64,000 nucleotides of DNA from Amaricoccus sp. (GCA_965243535.1 CBDEVG010000045.1:294955-358954), one strand, 5' to 3'; counted from the first letter of the stretch, positions 1 to 56,733 are shown. Notes: generated by a model not told the origin, from the sequence alone. Made by a program: numbers and translations.

Positions 1-98
1 CCGACCGCATCCTGCATATGCGCGACGGACGCCTGATCCAGGAATTCGTCCCCGCCCGCACCACGCTCGCCCATGTCGAGGAGGCGGTCCATGCCTAA
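1..98 (+). CDS. ABC transporter ATP-binding protein, C-terminal fragment (5' end outside window)
   Basis: Frame beginning at nt 3 reads ...DRILHMRDGRLIQEFVPARTTLAHVEEAVHA and ends at TAA 96-98, immediately before and overlapping the start of the first permease (ATGCCTAA). Position upstream of two CUT2-type permeases fits an ATPase subunit. Confidence 0.45.
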   Translation, partial: DRILHMRDGRLIQEFVPARTTLAHVEEAVHA

Positions 99-11946: not shown

Positions 11947-12867
11947 TCAAGCCCTCGGGATCTGAGGGTCGGGGTCGGGCTTCAGGCCGCGCCGCCCGCC
12001 ACGGCGAGCGGCTGCGCCTCGTAGCCGAGCGCCCGGCAGATCTCGAAGCTCAGGTCGGGGTTGTTGAGGGGTGTAAACGTGCAGATGCTCCACCCCCTCG
12101 GCGATCAGCTCGCGCCACTGGTCGGCCGCCACCTCCACCGACAGGGCCCAGGCCGCCGCGTCGTCGGTCGCCTTGCCGAAGGCCTCGTGCAGCCGCTCGG
12201 GCACCCGCGCCTGGCAGCGCGCGGCGAAGTTCACCATGCGGGAGAACTTCTCGATCGGCAGCACCCCCGGCAGGATCGGGGCGGAGATGCCCGCCGCCGC
12301 GCAGGCGTCGCGGAACCGCAGGAAATCCCCGTTGTCGAAGAAGAACTGGGTGATCGCGTTCGAGGCGCCCGCGTCGATCTTGCGCTTGAGGTTGTCGATG
12401 TCCGCGGCGAGGCTCGCCGCCTCCGGATGCTTCTCGGGATAGGCCGCCACCGAGATCTCGAACTCGCCCGCCGCCAGCGCCGCCACCAGCTCCGCGGCCG
12501 AGCGGAAGCCTTCGGGATGGGGCTCGAACCGCGTCGCGCCCTGGGGCGGGTCGCCGCGCAGCGCCACGATCCGCCGGGCGCCCATCCGCCCGTAGCCCCG
12601 GGCCACCGCCAGGGTTTCCTCGCGGGTGGCGCCGACGCAGGTCAAGTGGCCCGCGACGTTCAGGTGCGCCCGCTCGATGATCGCCTGGATCGCCGCCGCC
12701 GTGCGGTCCCGGGTCGCCCCGCCCGCGCCGTAGGTGACGGAGACGAAGCGCGGCGCGAGGGGCGCGAGCCGCTCCACCGAGCGCCACAGCCGCAGGCCGC
12801 CTTCCGGCGTGCCGGGGGGAAAGAATTCGAAGGACAGACCCGGCAGGGCCTTGGACGTCGTGGTCAT
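11947..12867 (-). CDS. metF: 5,10-methylenetetrahydrofolate reductase MetF (apparent +1 frameshift near 3' end; see findings)
   Basis: Start ATG at 12867 (MTTTSKALPGLSFEFFPPGT...). Body matches MetF (NVAGHLTCVGATREE, AYPEKHPEA, ITQFFFD). The true C-terminus HFYTLNNPDLSFEICRALGYEAQPLAVAGGAA* lies in a different frame ending at 11982. As sequenced, the reading frame instead runs to 11947. Confidence 0.8.
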   Translation of the reverse strand: MTTTSKALPGLSFEFFPPGTPEGGLRLWRSVERLAPLAPRFVSVTYGAGGATRDRTAAAIQAIIERAHLNVAGHLTCVGATREETLAVARGYGRMGARRIVALRGDPPQGATRFEPHPEGFRSAAELVAALAAGEFEISVAAYPEKHPEAASLAADIDNLKRKIDAGASNAITQFFFDNGDFLRFRDACAAAGISAPILPGVLPIEKFSRMVNFAARCQARVPERLHEAFGKATDDAAAWALSVEVAADQWRELIAEGVEHLHVYTPQQPRPELRDLPGARLRGAAARRGGRRGLKPDPDPQIPRA

Positions 12868-12975
12868 GCGCACCGGTCCGAACCGACAATGAATGTTGCG
12901 CGACGTCATTACCTCTGGCCAGCGGCCCGGGCAACGGCTAACTGGCGAGGGTCCGTCCGAGCGAAGGGGGTTCCC

Positions 12976-13278
12976 ATGCCCGAGGTCCGCATCCTGTACT
13001 GGCGCGACATTCCCGCCCAGGTCATCGTCGGCGAGGGCCGCGCGGCCGCCAAGGCCCGGCTCTCCCACCGCTTCGAGGAAGCGATCGACGCCTGCGTCCT
13101 GCGCGGCCGCGACGCCGAGGCCTATCGCGCCGAATGGCGCCCGGGCGAGGCCTATGTGGTGGACGGCGACGCCGTCGAGATCGCGGCGGTCGAGGTCGAG
13201 CGCATCGAGTTCGCCTTTCCCGCCGAAGCCGTCCGCGCCCTCGTCGCTAACGAGGGCTGGGCCGAACCCCGCGCCTGA
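12976..13278 (+). CDS. Small conserved protein, probably PF13769-like ('virulence factor' family often adjacent to metF in alphaproteobacteria)
   Basis: ATG 12976 after GAAGGGGG. 100 aa, MPEVRILYWRDIPAQVIVGEGRAAAKARLSHRFEEAIDACVLRGRDAEAYRAEWRPGEAYVVDGD... Divergent from metF. Family assignment is from memory. Confidence 0.45.
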   Translation: MPEVRILYWRDIPAQVIVGEGRAAAKARLSHRFEEAIDACVLRGRDAEAYRAEWRPGEAYVVDGDAVEIAAVEVERIEFAFPAEAVRALVANEGWAEPRA

Positions 13279-13447
13279 GAGGCCATCCGAAACTTCGGAC
13301 GGGTCGACCCGACGGATCTTTTCCCGGAACGTCGATCCTTCCCGCCCATATCCCGATATTGACGGAAAGGCTCTCCTGCCGGATTCCCGAAACGCCCGCG
13401 TCGGCTCTCCGTCGCCGCATGTCCAGACAGTCTCTGAGGCCCGCCCG

Positions 13448-14100
13448 ATGCCCCGCTTCGCCCTGCTCTTCGACCTCGACGGCACGCTGATCGAAAGCGA
13501 CCACCTGCACCACGCCGCCTTTTCCCGGGTGATGGAGGAAATCGGTCTGCCGCCTCTGGGCTGGGAGGCCTATCGCACCGGCATCATGGGCAAGCCGAAC
13601 CTCCAGATCGCCCGGGACTGGTTTCCCGACCGCCCCGACGCGCTCGCCCTGGTCGACCGCAAGGAGGCGCTGTTCCGCGAGGCGCTCGCCGCCTCGGTCG
13701 CCCCGGTGGCGGGGCTTGCGCCCCTGCTCGACTGGGCGGAGGCCGCGGGCGCGGGGCTCGCCGTGGTGACCAACGCCCCCCGGGCCAACGCCGAGGCGAT
13801 GCTAGCGGCGGGCGGCCTCGCGGCGCGGCTGACCGAACTGGTGATCGGCGAGGAATGCGTCCGCTCCAAGCCCGACCCCCTGCCCTACCAGGAAGCGATG
13901 CGCCGGCTCGGCGTCACGCCCTCGCTCAGCTTCGCCTTCGAGGATTCCCCCTCCGGCCTGCGCGCCGCCCGCGCCTCGGGCGCCCATGTCTTCGGCCTGA
14001 CGAGCAGCCTGACCCCGGAAGAATTGCGGCAGGCGGGGGCCCACGAGGCCATCGCCGATTTCGCCGACCCCGCCCTCTGGACCGCGCTCGATGCGCTCCA
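13448..14100 (+). CDS. HAD-superfamily hydrolase (beta-phosphoglucomutase/CbbY-like); 3' end not defined by a stop codon
   Basis: MPRFALLFDLDGTLIESDHLHH (motif I DxDGT), VVTNAPRANAEA (motif II), SKPDPLPY and FEDSPSGLRAARASGAHVFGL (motifs III/IV). The protein-like sequence ends near ...FADPALWTALDAL (about 14095), but the frame stays open to 16567 through unrelated sequence. Confidence 0.65.
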
Positions 14101-16498
14101 CCTCGACCTCGGTCTCGCGCACGAGCTCCACGCGGAAGCGACGTACGCCGAGGCCCATCGCGCGTGGCACCTGCGACGCGGCGGACTGCGCATGCGCATG
14201 GAACACGGTGTTGCGACAGCCCACGTCGGCCTCGACGGGATGCTCCATGCCCGCGCGATCCTGGAGACCCACCACGTGCTTCTCGCACGGTCGACCACAC
14301 GTCTTGTGATCGCGCCCCTCCGACAGCAGCGCCGCGATCACGCAGTGCTCCATGTGGAAGAGCGGCATCGGGTGGTGCACCACGAGCTCGGCCCACGGAC
14401 CGAACGGCGAGTCGAGCAGCGCGAGCAGCTGCGTCGCGTCGAGATCGAACGAGGGCACGAACGCGTCGAGCCCCGCATCGAGGATCTCGCGCGCGCTGAT
14501 CCTGTTCGTCACGTTCAGCGAGAAATCGCCCACGAAACAAGGCGATCCAGAGGATCGTCCGGCGCGCGCACGGCCGACCTCGCGCAGGTGCCCGAGGCCT
14601 CGCACGAGCACCGCATCGGGCGCGAGCGAGTCGAGGTAGCCCTGGATCTTCTCTTCGCCCGGCTTGCGAATGCGCGGAGGGGCGACGCCCACGAACCTCG
14701 CGCCCTCGCTCCGCAGCGCGCGCACGGCCTGACCGGTGCCCGTGAGCTCGAGGAAGTCGAGGTAGACACCATCGGCACCTGCGGCGATCGCGGCGCGCGC
14801 CTGCGCGAGGTTGCGACAGAGCACGAAGAGGCCGCCCGAGGGTGCGTCGCGCTCGGGCGGCCGCGCCCGATCCACGAGCGCGCTCGCGGTGATGGACGAG
14901 GTCGCGATCGAACGCGACGCGGCCTTCGTGAGCGCGTCCGTCAGCGCGCGTCGCGCGCGGTGGAGAGACGAGACCGGCAGGAAGCGATCCTCGGGCAGAT
15001 CGATCGTCAGCGAGTCGAGCACGAACGTCGTCTCGCCGAGGCGCTCCATCGACTCGCGGATCGTCGTATCCGGCGTGGGCAGCTTCTTCGCGCGATCGAC
15101 GACCGCGTCGCCCACCACCTCGGCCACCAGGCCCCGCCGGCTCTCTGCGCGCAGCGTGAACGGCGCACCGGTCTCGCCAGAGATCGTGATGGCGATCGGC
15201 TCGCGGTGCGGATCGCGATCGAGCCGAGTGATCACGGCCTTCTCGAGCGAAGGGTCATCGTTCTTGAACACGCGACGTCCCACGAGCGACGCGTCGGGCG
15301 TGCGATCGGGGCCGAGCCAGACGCGCACCACGCTGCCCTCGCCGGCATGCTCGACGTCGCGCGCACCCCGCTCGCCACGCGCGCGCGTCTCCACGTTCCA
15401 CACGCGACCACCGAGCTCGCCCTCGCCGCCCAACGCGCCCTCGACGAGCAGACCATCGCCGCGCGCGACGCGCGTCTCGGTGTGCTCGATCACGATCATC
15501 GCGCGGCGCGCGTCGTGCTCGATCGCAGCGACGCGACCGACCACGAGGCCGCGGTGATCGCAGCCGCGCGCCTCGACCAGGCGCTGGTGATCGATGCCCG
15601 CGAGGAAGCCGGGCCCCGAGCCGCGCGAGTAGGTCTGGAGAGCCTCGGCTCGCAGCGCGCCGAGGGCGTCGTCGTCCATGCCGTCGATCGCGGCGCGGTA
15701 GAGGCGCGTGGTGCTCGCGACGTACGCCGGGCCTTTGAGGCGACCTTCGATCTTGAGCGAGCTGACGCCGACGTCGGCGAGCTCGGGCACCAGCGCGCTC
15801 GCCTCGAGATCCTCGGGCGACAGCAGGTACGCACGATCGTCGAGCGGGCGCCTCTCCCCATCGACGACGAGCGTGTACGGCAAGCGACAGGCCTGCGCGC
15901 ACGCGCCGCGGTTGGCGCTGCGGCCACCGATCGCCTCGCTCGTGAGGCACTGCCCGGAGTACGCGATGCAGAGCGCGCCGTGCACGAACACCTCGAGCTC
16001 CATGCCGCCTTCGCGCTCGCACGCACGCTGGATGGCCGTGATCTCGGTCAGACCCAGCTCGCGCGCGAGCACCACCCGCGAGACGCCGCGGTCCTTGGCG
16101 AAGAGCACGCTCTCGGCGTCGGTGCACGTCATCTGCGTCGAGGCGTGCAAGCGCAGCTCGGGCGCGATCGCGCGCGCCATCGCGAGCACGCCGAGATCCT
16201 GCACGATCACAGCGTCCACCCCTGCGCGCGCGCAAGCGCGGATCGCGGACTCCATCGCGCCGAGCTCGTGATCGAACACGAGCGTGTTGAGCGTGACGTA
16301 GCCCTTCACGCCGCGGGCATGGAGCGAGGCGAGGATCTCCGCGAGGCCCGCTTCGTCGAAGTTCGCGGCCCGTGCGCGCGCGTTGAAATGCGCGAGGCCG
16401 AAGTACACGGCGTCGGCGCCTGCGCGCATCGCGGCCTCGAGCGCCGCACGATCACCAGCGGGCGCGAGGACTTCGGGGCGCGTGCGGAGAGACTTCAT
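13802..16498 (-). CDS. Peptidase U32 family protein (collagenase-like; YhbU/YdcP family); last ~100 codons probably not genuine
   Basis: Start 16498 MKSLRTRPEVLAPAGDRAALEAAMRAGADAVYFGL... Conserved U32 core (ELEVFVHGALCIAYSGQCLTSEAIGGRSANRGACAQACRLPY) and C-terminal Cys module (HPMPLFHMEHCVIAALLSEGRDHKTCGRPCE). After ...VELVRETEVEVERIERG (about 14100) the frame runs antisense through the HAD gene to a stop at 13802. Confidence 0.7.
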   Translation of the reverse strand: MKSLRTRPEVLAPAGDRAALEAAMRAGADAVYFGLAHFNARARAANFDEAGLAEILASLHARGVKGYVTLNTLVFDHELGAMESAIRACARAGVDAVIVQDLGVLAMARAIAPELRLHASTQMTCTDAESVLFAKDRGVSRVVLARELGLTEITAIQRACEREGGMELEVFVHGALCIAYSGQCLTSEAIGGRSANRGACAQACRLPYTLVVDGERRPLDDRAYLLSPEDLEASALVPELADVGVSSLKIEGRLKGPAYVASTTRLYRAAIDGMDDDALGALRAEALQTYSRGSGPGFLAGIDHQRLVEARGCDHRGLVVGRVAAIEHDARRAMIVIEHTETRVARGDGLLVEGALGGEGELGGRVWNVETRARGERGARDVEHAGEGSVVRVWLGPDRTPDASLVGRRVFKNDDPSLEKAVITRLDRDPHREPIAITISGETGAPFTLRAESRRGLVAEVVGDAVVDRAKKLPTPDTTIRESMERLGETTFVLDSLTIDLPEDRFLPVSSLHRARRALTDALTKAASRSIATSSITASALVDRARPPERDAPSGGLFVLCRNLAQARAAIAAGADGVYLDFLELTGTGQAVRALRSEGARFVGVAPPRIRKPGEEKIQGYLDSLAPDAVLVRGLGHLREVGRARAGRSSGSPCFVGDFSLNVTNRISAREILDAGLDAFVPSFDLDATQLLALLDSPFGPWAELVVHHPMPLFHMEHCVIAALLSEGRDHKTCGRPCEKHVVGLQDRAGMEHPVEADVGCRNTVFHAHAQSAASQVPRAMGLGVRRFRVELVRETEVEVERIERGPEGGVGEIGDGLVGPRLPQFFRGQAARQAEDMGARGAGGAQAGGGILEGEAERGRDAEPAHRFLVGQGVGLGADAFLADHQFGQPRREAARR

Positions 16499-16523
16499 GG
16501 GGGCGGCGGGTCTACGGCGCGGC

Positions 16524-17453
16524 TCAGCCCGACGCCATCCCGGCGACCGTTCCGTCTTTGCGCTTGAGAGGGCGCAGATCGATGCGGCAGGTGGTCCCGC
16601 CGTGCTTGGGGATCGTCTTGGTGAGCTGGTAGCGAAGGCCGAACACCGACGAGATGCCGGCCTGGAACTGTCCGAAGATCCCGCAGTGCATCATCGACCA
16701 GCCCGGTGAGGTGAACCACGGGCAGGCCGTGCCCTCGATCATGCCGGTGTTCGCCGCGGCGTCGGCCTCGTGCCAGTGGTGCGGGTTCACGCGGAACACG
16801 TACTCGCTCATGCGCAGCACCTCGATCGCGCTCTCGGGGCGATCGGGCAGCGAGAACGTCGCCTTGGCGCGCTCGGCGCTCGCGCGACCGCCCTCGAAGC
16901 AGATCTGACCGAGCGCGGCGTTCGCGCCGACCGGCACGGCGCGCGGCAGCGTCTGCGTGAGCGCGATCAGGATCTCACCGAGGTGCGTCGTCACCTCGTG
17001 CCAGCGATCGATCACGGGCACGTCACGCAAGAGGCGCCACTCGAGCGCGAGGTGATCGCGCCGACGCGTGGGCGGCGCACCCGAGAGCCCACGGAACGGC
17101 CACGCACGACGCTTCGGATCACGCGCCACCATCGAGAGCGCACCGAGCACGGACGCCGCTCGTGCTTCATCCCCCGCGAGGCGCGGATGTCGCTCGACGA
17201 GTCGATCCCATCGCTTGCGGTACCCGATCGCCGCGGCCTTCGCGATCTCGTCCTCCGCTCGCTCGCGCGATCCGAGCACCGGCGTGAGCCCCTTGCGCAG
17301 CATCGCGTACCACGCGTGCATCCCGTCGGCGGCGAGCGTCCAGAGCAGCCACGGAGGCAGCTGCTCACGTCGATAGGCCTCGCGAACCACCCGCTCGAGC
17401 ATCGCGCGAGGATACCAGCGACTCGCGTCGAGGGCGTGGTAGCCCTCGGCCAT
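16524..17453 (-). CDS. Conserved hypothetical protein (about 309 aa)
   Basis: Protein-like part of ORF 16524..17951 begins at Met-167 (MAEGYHALDASRWYPRAMLERVVREAY...). The upstream serine-rich part is antisense junk. No family recognised (HHWHEADAAANTGMIEGTACPWF). Confidence 0.45.
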   Translation of the reverse strand: MAEGYHALDASRWYPRAMLERVVREAYRREQLPPWLLWTLAADGMHAWYAMLRKGLTPVLGSRERAEDEIAKAAAIGYRKRWDRLVERHPRLAGDEARAASVLGALSMVARDPKRRAWPFRGLSGAPPTRRRDHLALEWRLLRDVPVIDRWHEVTTHLGEILIALTQTLPRAVPVGANAALGQICFEGGRASAERAKATFSLPDRPESAIEVLRMSEYVFRVNPHHWHEADAAANTGMIEGTACPWFTSPGWSMMHCGIFGQFQAGISSVFGLRYQLTKTIPKHGGTTCRIDLRPLKRKDGTVAGMASG

Positions 17454-18245: not shown

Positions 18246-18881
18246 TCAACAGCCGTCGTCGTTCAGACCGTCGCAGTCGTCGTCGACACCGTTGCCGCAG
18301 ATCTCGGCCACGTCGCACGTCGAGACCGTGCACAGACCGCCCGAGCAGATCTGGCCTGCTGCGCAGTCGCCGTCCGTCGCGCACGCCATGCCACAGCGCT
18401 GGCCGCTCTGCGTGCGATCGTCGGGAGCGCAGTCGATCACGTCGGGGGAGCCGTCGACATCACGGTCGCTGCCTCCGGGTGCGCCCACCACGGTGCCGCC
18501 CTCGAGGCGCACGGCGATCTCGAACGTGTCGGCCGTGTCGCTCAGGCCCTCGAGGAAGAGCGTGTCGATGGTGGCGCCCGGCAGCGTCGCGCCGAACGAG
18601 CCGTCAGCCGCCGTGTAGATCGCGACGCTCGCGCTCGACATCGGCGCCGAGGGATTCGTCACGCGCAGGGCGCGACCGCCCGGTCGCACCGCGCCCGCGC
18701 GGCCCGAGAGCCGCACCTCGCTCGCGCTCGCCTGCACCAGGCTCATGCGCGCCACGTCGAGCGAAGGCGGATCCGGGATCGGCGTCGCCAGACACGCCGA
18801 GAGACCCCACGAGACGACCAGCGCCGTGAGCGAGCGCCGAAGGACGCGGGAGACGGAGCGGTCGTTCGTGGGTCGGTGCAT
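18246..18881 (-). CDS. Cys-rich lipoprotein with MopE-type putative metal-binding motif (CxNGVDDDCDG)
   Basis: Signal/lipobox LVVSWGLSAC. The C-terminus carries CGNGVDDDCDGLNDDGC and other Cys pairs. Paralogous to the next gene. Confidence 0.6.
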   Translation of the reverse strand: MHRPTNDRSVSRVLRRSLTALVVSWGLSACLATPIPDPPSLDVARMSLVQASASEVRLSGRAGAVRPGGRALRVTNPSAPMSSASVAIYTAADGSFGATLPGATIDTLFLEGLSDTADTFEIAVRLEGGTVVGAPGGSDRDVDGSPDVIDCAPDDRTQSGQRCGMACATDGDCAAGQICSGGLCTVSTCDVAEICGNGVDDDCDGLNDDGC

Positions 18882-18933
18882 CGAGGCCTCTCAGGCTGAC
18901 AGATCACGCGGGATCAGAGGAGCTGCGTCGGGG

Positions 18934-19752
18934 TCATGCGGCCGTGCACAGGCCCGACACGCACACCTGACCCGCGGCGCAGTCGGCATCGGTCGCGCAC
19001 GCGTCCTCGCAGCCGTCGTCGACGAGGCCGTCGCAGTCGTCGTCGACGGCGTTGCCGCACACCTCGGCGCCGCACATCGGATCGCCGGAGCACACACCCG
19101 ACACGCACACCTGACCCGCGGCGCAGTCGTCGTCCGCGCTGCAGACGAGGCCACGGCCTTCGCAACGTCCGCCGACGCACGCGCTGCCCGCGCCGCAGTC
19201 GGCATCGGTCGCGCACTCGAGCTCGGAGGTCACGCACGCGCCCATCGCGCACACCTGTCCCGCCGCGCAGTCCGCGTCGAGCGTGCACTCGCTCGTGCAG
19301 TCTTCGTCGACCACACCGTCGCAGTCGTCGTCGACGCCGTTGCTGCACGCCTCGGCGCTCGGCTCACAGCCGCTCGAAGCGCGACATGCGCCCGCATCGC
19401 AGCGCGAGCCGGCGGGGCAGTCCGCATCGGCCGCGCACGCGAGCGAGCCAGGAAGGTCCGCGCACGCGCCCGCGACGCAGAGCCGCATCGGCCCGCACGC
19501 GCTGTCGGTCTCGCAGGCCTCGCCGCGTCCCGCCCAGCACGAGCCATCGACGCACACGGCCTCGCTCGGACAGTCGGCGTCCGACGCACACGCCGCGAGG
19601 CACCGGTCCTCGACGCAGCTCGCGCCCGCCGCGCAGAGCTCGTCTTCGGTGCACGCCGTGACCGCGTAGCTCGATCGACCGAGAGGCTCGGCCTGACATG
19701 CAGCGAGCGAGGCGAGGGATGCAGCGGCGAAGAGCACGTGACCGAGACGCAT
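18934..19752 (-). CDS. Cys-rich repeat lipoprotein (multiple DADCPAG..C modules plus two MopE-type CxNxVDDDCDG motifs)
   Basis: Start MRLGHVLFAAASLASLAACQ (lipobox). 272 aa with about 40 Cys in repeated modules. The DNA-level repeats encoding the DDDCDG motif are also seen at 18250-18305 and 19320-19357. Confidence 0.6.
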   Translation of the reverse strand: MRLGHVLFAAASLASLAACQAEPLGRSSYAVTACTEDELCAAGASCVEDRCLAACASDADCPSEAVCVDGSCWAGRGEACETDSACGPMRLCVAGACADLPGSLACAADADCPAGSRCDAGACRASSGCEPSAEACSNGVDDDCDGVVDEDCTSECTLDADCAAGQVCAMGACVTSELECATDADCGAGSACVGGRCEGRGLVCSADDDCAAGQVCVSGVCSGDPMCGAEVCGNAVDDDCDGLVDDGCEDACATDADCAAGQVCVSGLCTAA

Positions 19753-19865
19753 GAGGAACCTCCGAGAAGGGGATGCGCTCCTTCCGCAAGCAGGGTGCCA
19801 GCGAGGCCACGCGATGAATCAGCGCGATCCTCGACATTCATGGGCGTCTAACTGTCTCGCGACAT

Positions 19866-21182
19866 TTGTTATTGTCTCACTGCGACATGGCCCACGGCGC
19901 CCGGATCGACCGCTATGCGATGCACACCGTGCTCGGGCCCGACGTAGGGCGCGCGAGCGATCGGCTCGGCGGCCCCGACGTCATCGTGAAGCGCGCGAAG
20001 GAGGGCCCGGCGCGCGACGCGCTCGAGCGCGAGGTGAGGCTCGCGATCGATCTCGAAGGACACGCCGCCGCGCGTGCCGTTCACGCGGTCGCGTCGCACG
20101 AAGACGGATCGCTCACGGTCGTGCTCGAGGACGTGATCGGCCGACCGCTCGACCTCGTGTCGCCTGCGCCGCGCGAAGCACACCGACTCGCGGTCGAGCT
20201 CCTGCGCGCGTTGCTCTCTCTCCACGACCGCGGTCTCGTGCACGGCGACCTCAAGCCTGCGCACGTGCTCGTCGACGAGGACGGTGCGATCCGCCTGCTC
20301 GACCTCGGCCTCGTGACGCCCCTGGGCGCGCCGGCACGCGGCGGCACGCACGGCTTCCTCGCCCCCGAGCTCCTCCTCGGCGCGGCGACGAGCGCGCAGA
20401 CGGAGCTCCACGCGTTCGGCCGCACGCTCGTGGCGGCCAGCATGCGAGGGCTCGACGCTGGGCTCGACCGGCTGATCGATGCGTGCGTCGCGATCGATGC
20501 ACGCGAACGACCGCCTTCGATCGAAGCCGCGCTCGCGATGCTCGACGCGCTGCCCCGTCACCGTTCGGTCTCGCGAGACGATCCGCTCGCGAGCGTGCTC
20601 GTCGAGATCGATCGTGCGCTCGAGGCGGACGACGGACGCACCCTGACGATCGCGCTCGCACGCGGCGGAGGTCGCACGCACCTCACGCGCACGGCCGTCC
20701 ATCGCTCCTCGGCGCGGCCCGCGCGATCACTCGTGGCGGTCGGAGGCGGAGCGTTGGTGGGCGGGCTCGTCGCCGCAGCACCGCTCTTCGAGACACCGCA
20801 CACCGAGGATCGCGAGCGTCTCGTCGAGCGCACGCTCTCACGCGCGATCGACGCTGGCGTTCGCTGGCTCGTCGACGGAGGGGGACGACGCGAGCCCCGA
20901 CCTCCGCGCCGATCTCGTGACAGCGGCGCGCGCATCGTTCGCTCTCGGCCGAGGCCTCCTCGTGATCGTCGGTGTCGACGACGCCCTCCACCGCGCGCTC
21001 GCGGACGTGAGCCCCTCGCTCGCGACGCTCAGCGTGCCCGAGATCGACGACGCCGAGCTTCATCGCGCGCTCGAAGGCGCCGACGTCGCGCTCGACGCGA
21101 GCGGGCGCGCCGAGCTCCTCGCGCGGACCGAGCGACGACGAGGCGTGGTGCACCGCGCGATCCGGAGGCTGGCGCGAGGTGA
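19866..21182 (+). CDS. Ser/Thr protein kinase domain ORF (probably the N-terminal part of a frameshifted STK/sigma-54 activator fusion)
   Basis: Hanks kinase motifs HGDLKPAHVLV (subdomain VIb), DLGL (VII) and GTHGFLAPE (VIII). Protein-like sequence runs to about 20882, and the remaining ORF tail is poly-Arg junk. An alternative start is MAHGARIDRY at 19887. Confidence 0.7.
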   Translation: MLLSHCDMAHGARIDRYAMHTVLGPDVGRASDRLGGPDVIVKRAKEGPARDALEREVRLAIDLEGHAAARAVHAVASHEDGSLTVVLEDVIGRPLDLVSPAPREAHRLAVELLRALLSLHDRGLVHGDLKPAHVLVDEDGAIRLLDLGLVTPLGAPARGGTHGFLAPELLLGAATSAQTELHAFGRTLVAASMRGLDAGLDRLIDACVAIDARERPPSIEAALAMLDALPRHRSVSRDDPLASVLVEIDRALEADDGRTLTIALARGGGRTHLTRTAVHRSSARPARSLVAVGGGALVGGLVAAAPLFETPHTEDRERLVERTLSRAIDAGVRWLVDGGGRREPRPPRRSRDSGARIVRSRPRPPRDRRCRRRPPPRARGREPLARDAQRARDRRRRASSRARRRRRRARRERARRAPRADRATTRRGAPRDPEAGAR

Positions 21183-24100
21183 CGTCTCGCTCGAGGTCGC
21201 GATCGCACGGGCGGTCGGGATCGTGGCGGTGGCGGAGCCCGATCCCTCCGTGCGACGCGAGCGGGCGCGCGCCGCGCGAGCGAACGACGCGCCGCGTGCC
21301 GCCCTCGTCGCCCTCGACACCGACGACGACGACGAGGCGCTCCGCCTCTCTTCCTGGGCCCACGCACGAACGGGCGCGGTCGCGCAGGCGATCGTGTTCC
21401 TCGATCGCATCCCCGCATCGCATCGTTCGGCGACCGATCGAGCCCAGCGCGCGCGATGGCTCGAGCGCGTGGGCAGGCTGGAGGAGGCCTTCGACGAGGC
21501 GGCGGCGCTGCTCGATCACACCGATCTGCCGCCCGAGACCCACACGATCGCGATCCTCGCCGCGGCCACGAGCGCGCACCGCCGCGGTCGTCTCGAGGAC
21601 GCGCGAGCAATCCTCGAGCGGGTGCCACCGACGCTCGACGCGATCGCCCGCTGCCGCCTCGACACCGTCGCGAGCGACGTGGCGCTGGCACGCGGCGATC
21701 ATGCCGAAGCGAGACGTCTCGCGTTGCAAGCGCTTGCGCGTGGAGAGGCGCTCGGCGATCGAAGTCTGCTCGCGCTCGTCGAAGCGCGCCTCGGTGCGAT
21801 CTCTGGTCTGGGTGGCGATGCCGGACGCGCGCTCGATCACCACGAGCGCGCGCTCGCTCACGCAGAGGCGGCGGGTGAGCTCAGCGCGCTCCCGCCCTAC
21901 CTCGGCAACGTCGCGAGCGCGCACCACTTGCTCGGTCACGTGGATCTCGCGATCGCGACCTACGAGCGCGCCGCAGGGCTCGCCGAGCGTCTGGGACGTT
22001 CTTCCTCGCTCGCGACGACGCTCGTGAACCTCGCCGGCCTGCACCAGCTCTTGCGCGCCGACGAAGAAGCGAACGCGCTGCTCGATCGCGCCGCAGACGT
22101 GGCGCGAGGCGTCGGCGCCGAGCTCGTCGTCGTGCAGTCGGTGCTCATCCGCGCGGAGCTCGCACGCGATCGAGGCGCCACGAGCCTCGCGAGGCGTGAG
22201 GCGACGCGAGCGCGCGACGCCTTCGAGGCCGCGGGGGCCGCGCGGCAGGCGCTCGAGGCCTCGGTGCTGCTCGCGGAGCTCGACGCGAGGGAGGGGCGAG
22301 CGAGCGACGCGATCGAGCGTGGCGCCACCGAGGAGCTCGAGAGCGCAGGACTCGACGCGCGCGCGGCGCTGGTCCGTGCAGAGCTCGCGTGGCACGCACG
22401 ACGAACGAGCGAAGCGTGCACGCTCGCCGAAGACGCCGCGGATCGCGCGCGCCGCGCACGACAGCCCGAGCAGGAGCTTCGCGCCTCGGCGTTCCTGGCT
22501 CGCGCACACGCGTCACTCGGCACGGGAGCCGCGGACGTCCACGCGAGCTCGTTCCGTCGTCGACTGGGCGACCTCGCGGCACGCACGCCACCGGGCCTCC
22601 GCGAGCGCTTCGTCCGTCGATGGACCGAGGCCGCGGGGCTCGACGACGTCGCGCACACCACCACGCGATCCGCGCGAGCCGCTGCGTCCCACGAAGGCTT
22701 GGGCCTCGCGGGCCACCGGCTCGTGTCGCTCGTACGGCGCACGCTCCTCGAGGCCGACGAAGCGCGGCTCCTCGAGGCCGCGCTCGACGAAGCGATCACC
22801 GCCTCCGGGGCCGAGCGAGGGTTCCTCCTGCTCGCGCGCGATGGAAAGCGTGCGGAGATCGCCGTCGCGCGCAACCTCGATCGCGACACGATCAAGCGAC
22901 CGCGCTTCCGCATGAGCCGATCGGTGGCCGATCGCGTGCTCGCGACGAACGAGCCTCTCGTGACGGCGAGCGCCACCGAGGATCCCGAGCTCGCGGGATC
23001 GCGTTCGATCCTCGATCTCGGCCTGCGATCGATCGTGTGCGTGCCCGTGCGTTCGCCCTCGGGCGTGGTGGGCGCGCTCTACCTCGATCACCGCTTCGAG
23101 CGCGGTCGCTTCGACACCGAGGTGTCCGAGATCGCGCAGGCGTTCGCGGACGTCGTCGGCCTCGCGCTCGAGAACACACGCCTGCATCGCGCGAACGAGG
23201 CGCGCCTGCACGAGGCCGAGGCGCTGCGCGCGGCGGCCGAGGAACGAGCGAGCGCCCACCTGCTCGACGCCGATCGCATGGCCGCGCTGTTGGCGAGCCG
23301 GAGCGTCGATCGCGCCGACGCACCAGGAGGCATCGTCGGACAGACGCCGGCGATCCGCGCAGCGATCGAGCTCGTGCGCAAGGTCGCCCGCTCCGACCTC
23401 GCGATCTGCATCGAGGGCGAGTCCGGCACGGGCAAGGAGCTCTTTGCGCGCCTCGCCCACGACGAGAGCCCGCGCCGCTCGGGCCCCTTCCTCGCGATCA
23501 ACTGCGGCGCCTTGCCCGAGGCACTGCTCGAGAGTGAGCTGTTCGGTCACGTGCGCGGTGCGTTCACCGGCGCGACACGCGATCACGAAGGACTTCTGCG
23601 GAGCGCGCACGGCGGCACGATCTTCCTCGACGAGGTCGGCGAGATGCCGTCCTCGATGCAGGTGCGCCTGCTGCGCGCGCTACAAGAGCGCGAGGTCCGG
23701 CCGGTCGGCGGGCGCGGCACGATCACCATCGACGTGCGCGTCGTCAGCGCCACCCACCGAAGTCTCGCGGACGAGATCGAGCGAGGGACCTTTCGCCGTG
23801 ACCTCTACTTCCGCCTCGCGGGCGTGACGGTCTCCTTGCCGCCGCTCCGCGAGCGCAGCGCGGACGTGCCTCTGCTCGCGACGGCAATCCTCGACCGCGT
23901 CGGTGGTCCCGGACGCAGGCTCTCGCGTCGTGCCCTCGCACGACTCCTCGCGCACCCGTTTCCCGGCAACGTGCGCGAGCTCGAGCAAGCCTTGCGTCGC
24001 GCCTGCGCGGTCGCGCAGTCCGACGTGCTCGAGCCCGACGACCTCGGGCTCGCGACGCCAGGCGAGCGCGTCGCGCGCGTGCAGCGCGTGGAGCTCACCT

Positions 24101-24258
24101 CGGGTCGCGTCGAGCGCGCTCTCTCGGACGCCGGAGGCAATCGCACGGTCGCGGCACGCGCGCTCGGCGTGAGCCGCGCCACGCTTCATCGCTTTCTCCT
24201 CCTCCAACCGCCGAGGGAGCCCGGTCGCCGCGGCAGGCCCTCACGCGGAGGACGCTAG
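20917..24258 (+). CDS. Sigma-54-dependent transcriptional activator with TPR-like repeats and GAF domain (frame is open upstream of the listed ATG back to the kinase frameshift point)
   Basis: Sigma-54 interaction domain: GESGTGKELFARLAH (Walker A), GAFTGA (GHVRGAFTGA) and DEVGEMPSSMQVRLLRAL. GAF-like segment LGLRSIVCVPVRSPSGVVGALYLD. C-terminal Fis-type HTH TVAARALGVSRATLHRFL. Long TPR/Ala-rich region at the N-terminus. Confidence 0.8.
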   Translation: MTAARASFALGRGLLVIVGVDDALHRALADVSPSLATLSVPEIDDAELHRALEGADVALDASGRAELLARTERRRGVVHRAIRRLARGDVSLEVAIARAVGIVAVAEPDPSVRRERARAARANDAPRAALVALDTDDDDEALRLSSWAHARTGAVAQAIVFLDRIPASHRSATDRAQRARWLERVGRLEEAFDEAAALLDHTDLPPETHTIAILAAATSAHRRGRLEDARAILERVPPTLDAIARCRLDTVASDVALARGDHAEARRLALQALARGEALGDRSLLALVEARLGAISGLGGDAGRALDHHERALAHAEAAGELSALPPYLGNVASAHHLLGHVDLAIATYERAAGLAERLGRSSSLATTLVNLAGLHQLLRADEEANALLDRAADVARGVGAELVVVQSVLIRAELARDRGATSLARREATRARDAFEAAGAARQALEASVLLAELDAREGRASDAIERGATEELESAGLDARAALVRAELAWHARRTSEACTLAEDAADRARRARQPEQELRASAFLARAHASLGTGAADVHASSFRRRLGDLAARTPPGLRERFVRRWTEAAGLDDVAHTTTRSARAAASHEGLGLAGHRLVSLVRRTLLEADEARLLEAALDEAITASGAERGFLLLARDGKRAEIAVARNLDRDTIKRPRFRMSRSVADRVLATNEPLVTASATEDPELAGSRSILDLGLRSIVCVPVRSPSGVVGALYLDHRFERGRFDTEVSEIAQAFADVVGLALENTRLHRANEARLHEAEALRAAAEERASAHLLDADRMAALLASRSVDRADAPGGIVGQTPAIRAAIELVRKVARSDLAICIEGESGTGKELFARLAHDESPRRSGPFLAINCGALPEALLESELFGHVRGAFTGATRDHEGLLRSAHGGTIFLDEVGEMPSSMQVRLLRALQEREVRPVGGRGTITIDVRVVSATHRSLADEIERGTFRRDLYFRLAGVTVSLPPLRERSADVPLLATAILDRVGGPGRRLSRRALARLLAHPFPGNVRELEQALRRACAVAQSDVLEPDDLGLATPGERVARVQRVELTSGRVERALSDAGGNRTVAARALGVSRATLHRFLLLQPPREPGRRGRPSRGGR

Positions 24259-25496
24259 AAGATCGTGCCGTCGGTGCGCGCGAGGATGGGCGGCGTTCCA
24301 TCACTGCGATGCTCGCGCGCGGCCTCGCGACCCGCGGCCCACGTGCCGCCTTCGATCACGCACGCGGCCGGCATCACCTCTCCCTCGACGCCGAGCGTCT
24401 CGCGCAGGCCCTGACCGACGCGCGCGAGCAGCGCGAGCGAGAGCGCGCGCCACTCGACGATCGGCTCGCTGCCCACGTCGTGCACGATCGATCGCAGGTC
24501 CGCCGAGACCGGGACGAGCACGCCATCGTCCACGAAGAGCCCACACGTGCGGTACTCGGTCATGCCCGGCAGCTCCGCGACGTCGTCGACGAAGACACCC
24601 GCCTCCTCGAGCACCGAGATCAGCGAGTACGTCATCCACTGTGAGAACGTGTGGAACGGTACGAGCCCCGCGCTCGGTCCCGCGCCGCCCGCCCGTGGGT
24701 GCGGCCACACGTCGCCGACGCTCACACCCATCACGGTGTGACGGCTAGGCCAGATCGGCGAGAAGGCCTCGAGGATCATCGAGAGCATGCGGCGTGCGGG
24801 GATCGCACGGCCGCGCTCGGTGCGACTCGCGCGCGACTTCATGGCATCGAAGAGGCATCCCAGCCGCGGCGCATCGTCGCCGAAGAAGTGAGAGGCCGCG
24901 CGCATCGCCGATCCGAGCTGGCTCAGGAGCTCCGTGCGACCAGCGAGGCCCTCCATCGGGTTGTCCGCTCGCACGTCGAGCGCGCGCGCGAAGCGCAAGG
25001 GATCGAGCGCGTCGAGCGCGTCGGCGTCGGCGCGCAGGGGCTGCTTCGGATCGTTGGAGAACAGGCCATCGACGTAGGCGTGAAAGCTCGCCAGCGCGAG
25101 GCCCTCCGTGCGACCGAGCCCGATGCCGGTCGCGCGCTCGAGGTAGCGCCACTTCGGTCCTGCGCCCGCGCCTAGAAGGATCGAGATGATCGCGATCTCG
25201 AAGAGGACACGCGCACGCTCGTCGGGGTCGCCGGCGAGCGCGGCGCGGATCGCCGCGAGTCGGTCGTGACCGCCGAGCCGCAGACGATCCAACCGGCTCG
25301 GCCACGGCACGCGTAGATCCGGGTAGCGCTGGCGCGTGATGCGCGCGACACGATCGATCACGCGCGGCATCGCGTCGAGCTGCACGCGGAAGTGCGCCAG
25401 CGAGCCCTCGAGCCCCGCCGTCAGCACCGACTCCGCGCGCTGGCGCACGGCATGCGGTGAGCGGAGGAACGCGATCGGGCTCTGCGCGTCCTGCAT
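24255..25496 (-). CDS. Conserved hypothetical protein (possibly DUF1688/URC4-like)
   Basis: Coherent 413-aa protein from MQDAQSPIAFLRSPHAVRQR... Family assignment is from memory only (…FHTFSQWMTYSLISVLEEAG). Confidence 0.45.
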   Translation of the reverse strand: MQDAQSPIAFLRSPHAVRQRAESVLTAGLEGSLAHFRVQLDAMPRVIDRVARITRQRYPDLRVPWPSRLDRLRLGGHDRLAAIRAALAGDPDERARVLFEIAIISILLGAGAGPKWRYLERATGIGLGRTEGLALASFHAYVDGLFSNDPKQPLRADADALDALDPLRFARALDVRADNPMEGLAGRTELLSQLGSAMRAASHFFGDDAPRLGCLFDAMKSRASRTERGRAIPARRMLSMILEAFSPIWPSRHTVMGVSVGDVWPHPRAGGAGPSAGLVPFHTFSQWMTYSLISVLEEAGVFVDDVAELPGMTEYRTCGLFVDDGVLVPVSADLRSIVHDVGSEPIVEWRALSLALLARVGQGLRETLGVEGEVMPAACVIEGGTWAAGREAAREHRSDGTPPILARTDGTIF

Positions 25497-25652
25497 GCTC
25501 GGGCGTGTGGAGTCGTGGCCGATGCGACCATGGTGCACGATCGCGCCGTCGCTCGACCACCCTGCCTTGACGCAGCGCGTCGGTCGGAGAATCCCGCGGC
25601 GCTTCGTTGGTCGTGTGACGGGAACGTGTCAAGATCGTGTCTGCCCCGCGCC

Positions 25653-27404
25653 ATGAGCTCGTCCACCGCCAAGCGAAAGAAGTCGAGCGACGAGGATCGA
25701 CTGATCGCGAGCACGCGTCGACTCTCGCTCGAGCCAGCGCCCGATCCGCGTCGCGAAGCCAAGCCCGCTGACGAGACGGAAGAGTCGGACGTCGAGGACG
25801 ACGCGGGCGGCTGGGCGCCGGATCGTCAGAGCGACTGGGGCTCGCTGCTCGCGGACCTCTCGCGTCCCGACGAGAACACGACGCTGCGTGTGCACGACCG
25901 CACGCACCTCGAGTTCCTCCTCGACTACGACCTCCGCGCGGACGCTCGCGCCGAGACATTCGAGTGGGAGGCGTACTTCTTCGCGCCCGAGAGCCTGCGC
26001 CTCACGAGCCGCACCTACGACAAGCAGGACCTCTACTCCGACCTCCAGTCGTACGTGCGCTTCGCCGTACCGGAGACGCCGTTCAGCGAGCTCTGCGGTG
26101 CACCGCTCGATCGCGTCCGCGCCGCGTTCGCGAAGAAGGACCCGACCTCGATCCTCTGCGAGCTCCGGTTCTACGCGTGCGTCGTGCGCGCCGCAGGCGT
26201 CGAGGCGCGGCGGTCGATCCTCGCGGGCCTCGAGGTCGCGACGCCCTCGATGGTGCCTCCGCCGCCCGGCTCGGGTCCGCGCGAGATCGCGCCGTCACGG
26301 CGAGCGATCGCGCTCGCCGCCGCCGATCGCATGATCGCGGACGTCGCCACGATCGCGAGCTCGATGCGCACGGCGCTCGAGCCCGCGCGCACGATGACCG
26401 ATCCGGTGCTCACGGCCGCGAGCTGGACCGACGAGGACGTCTCGCGTCTCCTCGAGACGTTGATGGCCAACCTCGCGTTCGGCCTGCGCGACGCGCGTGC
26501 ACCGGAAGGCCTGATCGCGAAGGCCGAGGCCGCCGCCGTCGCGGAGGCGCGCTACCGCGATGCGCACGGGCTCGATGGCATCGGTCACGTGGGCATGCCC
26601 TCGCGCCAGGCCGAGCACCTCGAGTTCCGCCGTCACGTGCTCAAGCGCTTCACCTCGTCGGTGCTGTGGCTCGAGCCCGAGGTGAAGGCCGCCTCGACCT
26701 GGGTGCTCCACTTCTTCTATGCGATCGCCGCGAGCGTCGCGATGGCGTTCGCCGTGGCCGCGGCGCTGTGGGGACCCGCGGGCATGAGCGTGGGGCCCAC
26801 GGGCTTCCTCGGCACGGACTTCTTCAAGTGGGCGGTGGTCGCGATCCTCGCGTACGCCGCGAAGGACCGCATCAAGGCGCTGCTCCAGACGATCTTCACG
26901 AACGTCGTGGCCCGTCACTTCCCGGATCGCAGCTGGCGCATCCGCGACGCGAGCAAGAAGCACGAGCTCGCCAGCATGGAAGAGCAATCCGGCTTCATCC
27001 CGTTCGAGGAGCTGCCGCCGGAGGTGCTCGAGGTCCGTCGCGCGACGCGCGTGTCGGCGCTCGAAGAAGAGGCGCGCCCCGAGACGGTCCTCTATCACAA
27101 GAAGACCGTGGTCGTGGATCGCTCGCTCGTGCGCAAGGTGGAGCCTCGCTACGACGCCATCACCGAGGTCTACCGCTTCGATCTCCGCCGCTGGCTCGCG
27201 CACACAGACGATCCCAAGCGTCAGTTCGCGTTCGCCGATCCACGCGAGGGCGTGGTCGCACGCGCCTCGGCGCCGCGCGTCTACAACCTCGGGATCGTCT
27301 ATCGCCTCAAGCGCGCGGGCGATCCGAGCGACACCGGCCGATGGCACCGCGTGCGCGTCGTCGTCACGCGCAAGGGCATCCGCCGCATCGAAGCGATCAG
27401 CTAG
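25653..27404 (+). CDS. Hypothetical protein with central TM segments (583 aa)
   Basis: ATG 25653 (MSSSTAKRKKSSDED...). Coherent non-repetitive sequence with hydrophobic segments STWVLHFFYAIAASVAMAFAVAAALWGPA and FFKWAVVAILAYAA. No family recognised. Confidence 0.5.
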   Translation: MSSSTAKRKKSSDEDRLIASTRRLSLEPAPDPRREAKPADETEESDVEDDAGGWAPDRQSDWGSLLADLSRPDENTTLRVHDRTHLEFLLDYDLRADARAETFEWEAYFFAPESLRLTSRTYDKQDLYSDLQSYVRFAVPETPFSELCGAPLDRVRAAFAKKDPTSILCELRFYACVVRAAGVEARRSILAGLEVATPSMVPPPPGSGPREIAPSRRAIALAAADRMIADVATIASSMRTALEPARTMTDPVLTAASWTDEDVSRLLETLMANLAFGLRDARAPEGLIAKAEAAAVAEARYRDAHGLDGIGHVGMPSRQAEHLEFRRHVLKRFTSSVLWLEPEVKAASTWVLHFFYAIAASVAMAFAVAAALWGPAGMSVGPTGFLGTDFFKWAVVAILAYAAKDRIKALLQTIFTNVVARHFPDRSWRIRDASKKHELASMEEQSGFIPFEELPPEVLEVRRATRVSALEEEARPETVLYHKKTVVVDRSLVRKVEPRYDAITEVYRFDLRRWLAHTDDPKRQFAFADPREGVVARASAPRVYNLGIVYRLKRAGDPSDTGRWHRVRVVVTRKGIRRIEAIS

Positions 27405-28572
27405 CGCGCACGACGAGACCGTCCGTGCCGCGGGCCAGCACGCCGACGCCACCCTCGCCTCGCTCGATCACCGAGGTGCGCCACGCGATGGCGCGACCGT
27501 CGTCGATGCCGAGCCGCAGCGCCCACGCGGTGCCGAACACGACCTCACGCGGATCGGCGAATCCCTCCGCATCGAACGTGCACGCGTGCGAGCCACGCGC
27601 GACGGGCCCGAGCGGCCAGCCCACGCACGTCGAGGTGAGGCCGAGCCCACGCCGCCGCACCGCGCTCCATGCGATCTCCGCGATCTCGCTACCGAGCACC
27701 CGACCTCGCTTCGCGCGCTCGTCGATCGCGCGAGCGATCTCGTCCTCGGACGCGGCCACCACCGTCGCGAGGCTCGCGTGCGCCGCGCTCTCGCTGCCGA
27801 CGAAGAGATCGATCGAGCTCGGCACCAACACGCGCGAGACGCTGCCGCGCCGCATGGCCCACAGATCCAGGCGTGCGCTCGATCCGGGCACGATCGCGCC
27901 ACCGTCGCGCTCCGAAGCACGCTGCGCGCGCGCGAGCTGATCGATCGCGAAGCCCGACTCGTCCGCGAGCACGAGCATGCGCGCGGCCGCCTCGGACTCG
28001 ATGCGTGTCCAGAGCTCCTGCCACGTCGCGAACGTGCTCGACGCGAGCGTGCGCCCGAGCGCTGCGCGGAGCGCCGCGAGATCCGCGATCACGTGCCCCA
28101 CCTCGTCCCGCTCCGCCTCGCCGAGCGGTCCCGCGAAGCGGTTCACGAGCTCGAGCGAGCTCCTCACCAGCGTGTCACGGCCTCGCAAGAGAGACAGCGT
28201 CGCTTCGTCGACGATCGCGAGGTCCGCGATCTGCGCGAACGGTGCTTGCTCGACGAGCACCGTACCCTCGCGCGGCACGTGCGCCTCGAGCGTCGCGCGG
28301 AGCTCGATCGCCGTGCGGTAGCGCGCGCGCTCGCCCGGGAGATCGGGTAACCCCGTCGCGTCGTCGTCGTGCACGATCGCCACGGGCAGCCCTTCCGCGG
28401 GGATCCAATAGAAGAAGCGACGCTCGGTCCCGCACGCGCGGAGGCCGAGCAGACGCGCCGCCACCAGGCTCCGACCGCGCAGGTCGTAGATCAGCCACCC
28501 ACGCGCGCGCTCGGCCACCAGCGCGAGCTGGATGGGACCGAGCAGCGTGTGGATCGAAGGCTCGACGCTCAC
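27397..28572 (-). CDS. Hypothetical protein, translationally coupled downstream of plsC-like gene
   Basis: GTG start at 28572 overlaps the TGA of the acyltransferase (GTGA overlap). 391 aa, VSVEPSIHTLLGPIQLALVAERARGWLIYDLRG... Vaguely creatinase/prolidase-N-like but without metal motifs. Confidence 0.4.
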   Translation of the reverse strand: MSVEPSIHTLLGPIQLALVAERARGWLIYDLRGRSLVAARLLGLRACGTERRFFYWIPAEGLPVAIVHDDDATGLPDLPGERARYRTAIELRATLEAHVPREGTVLVEQAPFAQIADLAIVDEATLSLLRGRDTLVRSSLELVNRFAGPLGEAERDEVGHVIADLAALRAALGRTLASSTFATWQELWTRIESEAAARMLVLADESGFAIDQLARAQRASERDGGAIVPGSSARLDLWAMRRGSVSRVLVPSSIDLFVGSESAAHASLATVVAASEDEIARAIDERAKRGRVLGSEIAEIAWSAVRRRGLGLTSTCVGWPLGPVARGSHACTFDAEGFADPREVVFGTAWALRLGIDDGRAIAWRTSVIERGEGGVGVLARGTDGLVVRAS

Positions 28573-55781: not shown

Positions 55782-56732
55782 TCAGCAGCCGGCGCCCGCC
55801 CGCTCGCAGCCGTTGCTCGCGCGACCGTCGCAGTCGAGCCAGCCTTCGTCGCAGCGAGTGATCCGACATGCGCCCGTAGCGCACGACGCCGTGGCGTGGC
55901 TCGGGGCGCACGCGACGTTGCAGTCACCGCAGTGCGTCGAGGTGTTCGTCGGCTGCTCGCAGCCAGGCGCTCCGTCGCAATTGGCGAGCCCGACGGCGCA
56001 GCCCGTCGGCGAGCAGGATCCGCTCGCGCACGTGGCAGCACCGCCCGCGACCGTGCAGGGCACGCCACACGCAGCGCAGTCTGCCGTCGTGCGCAGGCTG
56101 GTCTCGCAGCCGTTGGAGGCGAGGCCATCACAGTCGCCGACGTCGGCACGAAGACAGGCGACGACCTGGCAGGTGCCCGTCGAGCAGTCGCCGATCGCGC
56201 TCGACGGCGCACAGAACACGCCGCATCCACCACAGTCGCTGTTCGTGGCGAGCAGTGTCTCGCAACCATTCGCTGGCAGGCCGTCACAGTCCCCGCGCCG
56301 AGGCGGACACGTTGGGGCATCCGTGGTCAGCGCTGCGTCGTCGGGCTCACGCGCATCACGGGTTTCGGCATCGACGGCCGCGCCCGCGTCGTCCGCCTCG
56401 ATCGAGCCCGCGTCGATCGAGCCCGCGTCGATCGAGCCCGCGTCGATCGAGCCCGTGTCGATCGAGCCCGTGTCGAACCGTGACGGATCGAGGAAGGCGT
56501 CCGTCTCCGACCCATCGACGAGCGACGTCAGCGCATCGAGGTCGGTCGCATCCGGGAGGGCGACGTCTGCGCGCGCGTCCTGGACGAAGGTCGACGCATC
56601 GAGCGACCGCGCATCGCCGAGGTCGGGCGCGGCGTCGGGCGCATCGACGTTGGGGCATCCCGGCGCGAGTGCGAGCGCGAGCGTGGTGACGATCACAAGA
56701 GGGCGGTGGTCGCGGCGCATGGGTCCTCGCAT
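55782..56732 (-). CDS. Cys-rich repeat lipoprotein (four GDCDG..NGCE..C..CG..C modules) with (T/A)GSID pentapeptide run
   Basis: Lipobox LALAPGC. Modules GDCDGLPANGCETLLATNSDCGGCGVFC, GDCDGLASNGCETSLRTTADCAACGVPC, ANCDGAPGCEQPTNTSTHCGDCNVAC and LDCDGRASNGCE. The pentapeptide run is encoded by the 15-bp tandem DNA repeat. Confidence 0.6.
   Translation of the reverse strand: MRGPMRRDHRPLVIVTTLALALAPGCPNVDAPDAAPDLGDARSLDASTFVQDARADVALPDATDLDALTSLVDGSETDAFLDPSRFDTGSIDTGSIDAGSIDAGSIDAGSIEADDAGAAVDAETRDAREPDDAALTTDAPTCPPRRGDCDGLPANGCETLLATNSDCGGCGVFCAPSSAIGDCSTGTCQVVACLRADVGDCDGLASNGCETSLRTTADCAACGVPCTVAGGAATCASGSCSPTGCAVGLANCDGAPGCEQPTNTSTHCGDCNVACAPSHATASCATGACRITRCDEGWLDCDGRASNGCERAGAGC
56391..56470. 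repeat. 15-bp tandem repeat (GATCGAGCCCGCGTC x5, last two copies with G->T) inside the Cys-rich lipoprotein gene
   Basis: Read directly: cgatcgagcccgcgtcgatcgagcccgcgtcgatcgagcccgcgtcgatcgagcccgtgtcgatcgagcccgtgtcg. Encodes DTGSIDTGSIDAGSIDAGSIDAGSIE on the minus strand. Confidence 0.85.
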
Positions 56733-56733
56733 G

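Follow-up and report, generated by a model that had tools for sequence, protein, structure and literature searches.

Proteins that join a Ser/Thr kinase to a sigma-54 activator form a widely annotated class in myxobacteria. More than 100 proteins carrying both Pkinase and Sigma54_activat domains were found, mostly in myxobacterial metagenome-assembled genomes (MAGs) and including Polyangium spumosum, and the fusions compared here (P0048, P0051 and P0092, the last from Polyangium spumosum) have the same domain order as the gene described below, over lengths of 1400-1700 amino acids (aa). Such fusions appear as 'sigma 54-interacting transcriptional regulator' at NCBI and, in some cases, as 'PknK' at JGI; our literature searches found no experimental characterisation of this fusion family or architecture. 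Here we analysed a 64,000-nucleotide (nt) stretch of DNA from Amaricoccus sp. (GCA_965243535.1, CBDEVG010000045.1:294955-358954), hereafter the window, in which two overlapping open reading frames (ORFs) encode the two parts of such a protein. An earlier note, made from the sequence alone, had proposed that both ORFs belong to one kinase-sigma-54 activator gene that the removal of a single G would join, and gap-free, single-ORF orthologues in a common synteny bear this out. We are highly confident that this is a single gene for a sigma-54 activator of about 1456 aa, broken by one extra G, that no designed recoding is involved, and that the extra base is an artefact or a very recent mutation. 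The window gene is an ordinary frameshifted copy of the known myxobacterial fusion class. The same note had called these fusions common in Polyangiaceae; Polyangium spumosum is indeed represented, although the closest named relatives are Sandaracinus-like rather than Sorangium or Polyangium.

The window has a G+C content of 70%, and the two ORFs overlap by 266 nt (Table 1). The break lies within the string GAGGGGGAC (20878-20886), which contains a run of five Gs (G5). In frame 0 the translation reads ...RAIDAGVRWLVDGGGRREPRPPRR... (also given as ...RAIDAGVRWLVDGGG) and then runs on through about 100 Arg/Pro-rich residues, and frame +1 at the break reads ...EGDDASPDLRADLVTAARASF.... The phase of the low-GC second codon position moves from coordinates that leave a remainder of 1 on division by three to those that leave a remainder of 2 between about 20850 and 20900. 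A Viterbi frame tracker based on codon usage, which was used after a Kadane-type coding-segment score had proved too noisy for frameshift detection, places the switch from frame +0 to frame +1 at 20852/20853, 330 nt ahead of the frame-0 stop. The switch of frame at the G5 run had been noted before, although GAGGGGGAC lies one base to the left of the 20879-20887 given then. The Arg/Pro-rich residues at the end of the upstream ORF are out of frame and no genuine C-terminus. With one G removed, a merged protein of 1456 aa is obtained from the ATG at 19887, in keeping with the earlier estimate of about 1460 aa, and this start matches the N-terminus of P0048 in the alignment.

A search with the merged protein returned single-ORF proteins of 1442-1490 aa that cover 98-99% of it (P0048-P0052). 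P0048 (1457 aa) is 73% identical over 99% coverage, P0049, P0050, P0051 (from a Sandaracinus sp. MAG) and P0052 are 62-63% identical, and P0053 is 44% identical; the merged protein is collinear with all six homologues without a gap across the junction, far beyond chance expectation. At this point the window reads WLVDGG/DDASPDLRADL (the slash marks the junction) against WLIDGADAASPDLLADL in a homologue, and in a longer alignment VRWLVDGG/DDASPDLRADLVTAAR against VRWLIDGADAASPDLLADLVTAAR in P0048. The DNA of the window is GAC GGA GGGG GAC where the orthologues have GAC GGC GCA GAC, GAT GGC GCC GAC, GAC GGC GCG GAC, GAC GGA GCC GAA and GAC GGC GCC GAC. Their consensus is GAY-GGN-GCN-GAM, the window is exactly one base longer than the five orthologous loci, and none of the five has a G run at the junction. 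P0048-P0052 are syntenic orthologues (62-73% identity), uninterrupted where the window gene has the one extra base: the common neighbourhood consists of Peptidase_U32, chorismate mutase, DUF4870/MamF, two Cys-rich genes, the regulator and DUF1688 and, farther along, an acyltransferase and a response regulator. Two separate genes at this position in orthologues would, by the earlier note, have spoken against a single protein, and the opposite was found: all are single ORFs, P0050 and P0052 having been called intact on 13 and 21 contigs, respectively. When the query was limited to the first 763 aa of the merged protein, only distant kinases and TPR proteins came up, none of them reaching across the junction.

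The position of the break within the protein is equally informative. Pfam assigns Pkinase, TPR_12, GAF, Sigma54_activat, AAA_lid_14 and HTH_8 to the merged protein, and gives no match for residues 221-509, between kinase and TPR, even at E<=10, AAA_16 included. A profile of the orthologue group nevertheless matched the AAA_16-bearing region of relatives (hhalign probability 96.5%, E 7.5e-10), with GGGRTH falling on Walker A (GxGKS) and WLVDGGDD on Walker B. For the P0048 segment, AlphaFold gave a model with a five-stranded alpha/beta core at a mean predicted local distance difference test (pLDDT) score of 90.6, and Foldseek matched RFC clamp-loader subunits, Hda, MalT and NLR (NLRP2) NTPases at a probability of 1.0. 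On this profile and model evidence, the region is predicted to be a degenerate STAND/AAA+ NTPase-like domain with a P-loop NTPase fold, and the domain order of the protein is kinase-like, degenerate STAND/AAA+ NTPase-like, TPR, GAF, sigma-54 AAA+ and Fis-type HTH. In the P0048 model the junction comes directly past the strand VRWLID; two or three strands of the core stay in the upstream ORF together with the P-loop, and the others fall to the downstream ORF. Because the break splits one folded domain, two independent natural proteins are not credible, and we rejected the interpretation of the two ORFs as two natural genes.

The same evidence bears on a retained gene fission, in which the kinase-like protein would stand alone and the TPR-GAF-sigma-54 activator would be translated apart from it, both of them functional. 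Strong purifying selection on the downstream part speaks for it: the ratio of nonsynonymous to synonymous substitution rates (dN/dS) of the 3' part is 0.075 against the close relative L001 (MAG UWPOB_DELTA5, contig JAFLCL010000066.1), with 0.06-0.12 in neighbouring genes. However, so low a dN/dS would be just as likely with no lesion or with one of very recent origin. In-frame GTG codons are present at 20917 and 20962, yet the first has no Shine-Dalgarno (SD) sequence, and the GAGG that stands 7 nt upstream of the second is fortuitous. A fission would also cut the core of the NTPase-like domain and leave an upstream ORF whose last 100 or so codons are Arg-rich and resemble non-coding sequence, and which overlaps its partner, and no homologue is split at this point. 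We therefore regard retained fission as very unlikely.

Programmed recoding or phase variation would instead yield mostly a short kinase fragment, with the full-length activator made as a regulated fraction. The slippage would be that of the ribosome, by +1 on GGG-G while the rare GGA occupies the A site, or that of RNA or DNA polymerase within the G run. In favour of this, a +1 slip of tRNA-Gly from GGG (20880-82) to GGG (20881-83) would give exactly the orthologue-collinear protein, the codon that follows in frame 0 is GGA, the least used of those for Gly (6.9%), and an SD-like GGAGG overlaps the site. Against it, the SD-like element of prfB lies a few nt upstream of its shift codon, and the GGAGG found here shares bases with the shift codon of the window. 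Frame 0 stays open for a further 300 nt beyond the site, and shuffled sequence folds better than the 90 nt downstream of it (z = +1.63). None of the five orthologous loci, all of them uninterrupted ORFs, has either the frameshift or the G run. Phase-variable homopolymer tracts are usually 7 nt or more, and the G5 tract is far below known tract lengths. Recoding or phase variation is highly improbable on these grounds. Of the three causes that the earlier note had offered, a sequencing indel, a pseudogene and a programmed or phase-variable frameshift, the last is disfavoured, the shift not being conserved, the run being short and no stimulatory element being apparent; a sequencing indel and a very recent mutation stay in contention. 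A variant in which the G5 run is real and low-level +1 slippage (GGG-G, rare GGA) is newly gained, with the kinase-like fragment as the major product and the full-length activator as a minor, tunable one, strikes us as extremely improbable; if true, a sigma-54 regulator would have acquired a recoding switch de novo. Retained fission and recoding are unlikely even when taken together.

The single gene broken by one extra base shows no other sign of damage. The kinase, AAA+ and HTH motifs are intact. In a relative-rate test of the window against P0048 (outgroup P0049-P0052), the two lineages had 21 and 13 substitutions, respectively, before the junction (p=0.23), and 58 and 61 after it. With a single lesion, a non-significant rate test, low dN/dS and intact motifs, a decayed pseudogene is not supported, and, since the gene is otherwise undamaged, the lesion, if real, would be evolutionarily very young.

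We also considered the quality of the assembly. About 55 coding segments, covering 60 kb of the window, were checked for frame changes, and the break in the regulator gene is the only same-strand frame change away from a stop codon in the 64 kb; all other same-strand frame changes lie at most 40 nt from a stop codon. The other G/C homopolymers of the contig, which the earlier note had suggested checking for indels, were covered in this way within the window: there are 58 coding G/C runs of at least 5 nt, 11 of them of at least 6 nt, and 20 runs of 6-7 nt in all (11 in coding segments), none of which is tied to a frame break, and no further in-gene frame break was found in the 64 kb. L001 is 96.3% identical to the window at the DNA level over 22325-28644, and the only indel between the two in these 6.3 kb is an in-frame GCG at 26288, in a 592-aa gene (25626..27401). 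Two metagenome scans found no relatives, and exact searches with five ORFs of the window gave no match.

Two other regions of the window drew attention during the frame tracking. A second possible frame break at 55782-56736, on the minus strand, was rejected, as this is an intact Cys-rich lipoprotein gene of atypical composition; the gene (55782..56732, minus strand) encodes a lipoprotein-type signal peptide, and its codon composition mimics non-coding DNA in the tracker. With the divergent pair next to the regulator, this makes three genes for Cys-rich repeat proteins in these regions, and lipoprotein-type signal peptides are present in at least two, 18934..19752 and 55782..56732. At 11947-14017 the tracker shows short plus-strand 'coding' patches antisense to the minus-strand ORFs 11947..13569 and 13802..16690 (Peptidase_U32), which are probably shadow-frame effects.

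The DNA upstream of the regulator gene carries what appears to be its own target. The regulator gene and a divergent Cys-rich lipoprotein gene are 135 nt apart, and a sigma-54-type -24/-12 promoter element lies between them. This element precedes the ATG of the lipoprotein gene by 34 nt, and a GGAGG precedes the same ATG by 6 nt. By a composition estimate, about 0.1 perfect matches would be expected by chance, and the element is kept at the same place in the five orthologous loci (L004/L005, L006 with one mismatch, and L007-L009). Two inverted repeats, within a conserved block at 19850-19887, lie 53-101 nt upstream of the -24 element and abut the ATG of the regulator; they are a candidate activator binding site (upstream activating sequence) and/or a candidate operator of the regulator gene. 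The -24/-12 promoter of the divergent gene is probably a target of this activator, and the promoter suggests that the Cys-rich pair (18246..19752) are probably the regulated genes. Judging from the domains, the kinase-like, NTPase-like, TPR and GAF modules would sense signals and gate or release oligomerisation of the AAA+ domain. This domain would oligomerise on the conserved palindromes, bound through the HTH of the activator, which would then remodel sigma-54 RNA polymerase and open the -24/-12 promoter of the Cys-rich lipoprotein genes.

Table 1. Features of the frameshifted regulator gene, its predicted protein and the divergent Cys-rich genes (nt, positions in the window; aa, residues of the merged protein).
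Feature	Position (nt)	Position (aa)	Strand	Remarks
Upstream ORF	19866/19887..21182		+	Frame 0 (coordinate modulo 3 = 0); likely start ATG 19887
Downstream ORF	20917..24258		+	Coordinate modulo 3 = 1
5' gene part	19887..20883		+	Frame 0; kinase-like domain and first half of predicted STAND/AAA+-like NTPase domain
G5 run	20880..20884		+	One base beyond that of the orthologues; break from frame 0 to frame +1
3' gene part	20884..24258		+	Frame +1; second NTPase-like half, TPR, GAF, sigma-54 AAA+, lid, HTH_8
Out-of-frame tail of upstream ORF	20886..21182		+	About 100 Arg/Pro-rich codons without coding signature
Kinase-like domain		8-232	+	
Pkinase (PF00069)	20103-20435	73-183	+	Pfam; 50.6 bits against cut-off of 31.7; profile positions 70-189 of 263 only
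Degenerate P-loop GGGRTH	20664-20681		+	In 5' part
Walker-B strand VRWLVD	End of 5' part		+	
TPR region	~21325-22677		+	
TPR_12	21901-22107	672-740	+	Pfam
GAF	22762-23169	959-1094	+	Pfam
Sigma-54 AAA+ domain, Sigma54_activat (PF00158)	23332-23832	1149-1315	+	E 2.1e-67; 226 bits against cut-off of 20.2
AAA lid (AAA_lid_14)	23848-24048		+	Pfam
HTH_8	24112-24192	1409-1435	+	Pfam
Stop codon	24256-24258		+	
Sigma-54-type -24/-12 promoter TGGCACCCTGCTTGC	19786..19800		-	TGGCAC-N5-TTGC; only perfect consensus match in the 64-kb window
Inverted repeat TGTCTCGCGACA	19853-19864		.	At most 1 mismatch in all six aligned loci; single occurrence in the window
Inverted repeat TGTCTCACTGCGACA	19873-19887		.	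TGTC-N7-GACA; conserved in four of six loci (window, L004, L006, L007)
Cys-rich gene	18934..19752		-	272 aa; lipoprotein-type signal peptide; DUF7107/MopE-like repeats, 'CxxGxDDDCDG' motifs
Cys-rich gene	18246..18881		-	211 aa

As to the cause of the extra G, the lack of decay, taken with the intact regulatory module, points to an artefact or to a lesion of virtually no age. We hold it about evenly balanced that the base is a consensus indel from sequencing or assembly; its position in a homopolymer speaks for this, as does the fact that nothing else has decayed and that both the regulatory module and the target genes are intact. The contig also spans the point where a same-species short-read MAG broke, which hints at long reads and was counted, with little weight, towards an artefact. 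For a very recent slippage mutation or strain variant our confidence falls somewhat short of even; here a Gly-for-Ala substitution could have made a G4 run that later slipped, which was counted towards a real mutation. If the base is an artefact, the organism would make the full-length protein. If it is real, translation would give a kinase/half-NTPase fragment of 332 aa that carries a junk, Arg-rich tail and, at best, also an N-terminally truncated activator from an internal GTG.

Several points should temper this interpretation. All six homologues carry Ala (DGAD/DDAD) at a site where the merged reading has Gly, so that a substitution is needed besides the insertion. The L001 contig reaches back into the regulator gene only as far as 22325, which leaves 1.4 kb between it and the junction. 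The rest of the 64 kb is clean despite longer G/C runs, which somewhat favours a real mutation over an error-prone assembly, and the division between artefact and real mutation rests on priors. The regulatory mechanism, for its part, is drawn from domains and conserved DNA motifs.

The C-terminal half of the merged protein is a bacterial enhancer-binding protein: the Pfam domain, Walker A and B motifs, GAFTGA, the Arg finger region and the HTH are present (GESGTGKE at 1177, GAFTGA at 1224, FLDEVGE at 1246 and RRDLYFRL at 1303), and ZraR, NifA and FleQ in the PDB match with E values of 1e-63 to 1e-71. The kinase-like domain contains VIVKRA (Lys), HGDLKPAH (Asp and Lys), DLG and APE, and its Gly-rich loop is degenerate (LGPDVGRA). 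The metal-binding Asn of the catalytic loop is replaced by His in the window and in P0048-P0052 (HGDLKP[AS]H) and is kept in the distant P0053. In the NTPase-like domain, the P-loop GGGRTH has Arg at the position of the Walker A Lys in the window and all close orthologues, in contrast to distant members of the fusion class, which keep GxxGxGK[ST] and match AAA_16 in Pfam. These substitutions suggest that the kinase-like and NTPase domains may both be non-catalytic scaffolds, and that the NTPase domain is probably a non-hydrolysing one.

For annotation, our findings mean that both ORFs should be recorded as one frameshifted gene and not as a kinase and a separate activator. The window and the five orthologous loci also share a compact sigma-54 module, composed of the activator, the palindromes, the -24/-12 promoter and two Cys-rich lipoprotein genes. 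This module would suit the study of an abundant and apparently uncharacterised class of myxobacterial regulators.

Comparison with better-known systems places the gene more precisely. The programmed +1 frameshift of prfB (RF2) resembles this locus in requiring a +1 shift and in having an SD-like G-rich element at the site, but the site in the window lacks a frame-0 stop and conservation, and its SD spacing is wrong. Among sigma-54 activators, NifA (PDB 9qq6_C) matches the C-terminal GAF-AAA+-HTH half over residues 1005-1429 (E 4e-70) and ZraR (PDB 1ojl) matches residues 1149-1434 (E 1e-71). With regulators of this type the window protein shares GAFTGA, Walker A/B, the Fis-type HTH and an adjacent -24/-12 promoter, and it differs from them in an extra 950-aa N-terminal kinase-like/NTPase/TPR module and in having no receiver domain. 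This N-terminal extension recalls STAND proteins of the MalT (PDB 8bob_C)/PknK type, in that its middle domain has a P-loop NTPase fold, after which come a helical arm and TPR-like repeats; MalT had the highest query-normalised template-modelling score among the Foldseek matches listed (TMq 0.55), and the JGI annotation of relatives as PknK agrees with this likeness. In contrast to MalT and PknK, the window protein has a degenerate Walker A, and its output is a sigma-54 AAA+/Fis HTH rather than LuxR.

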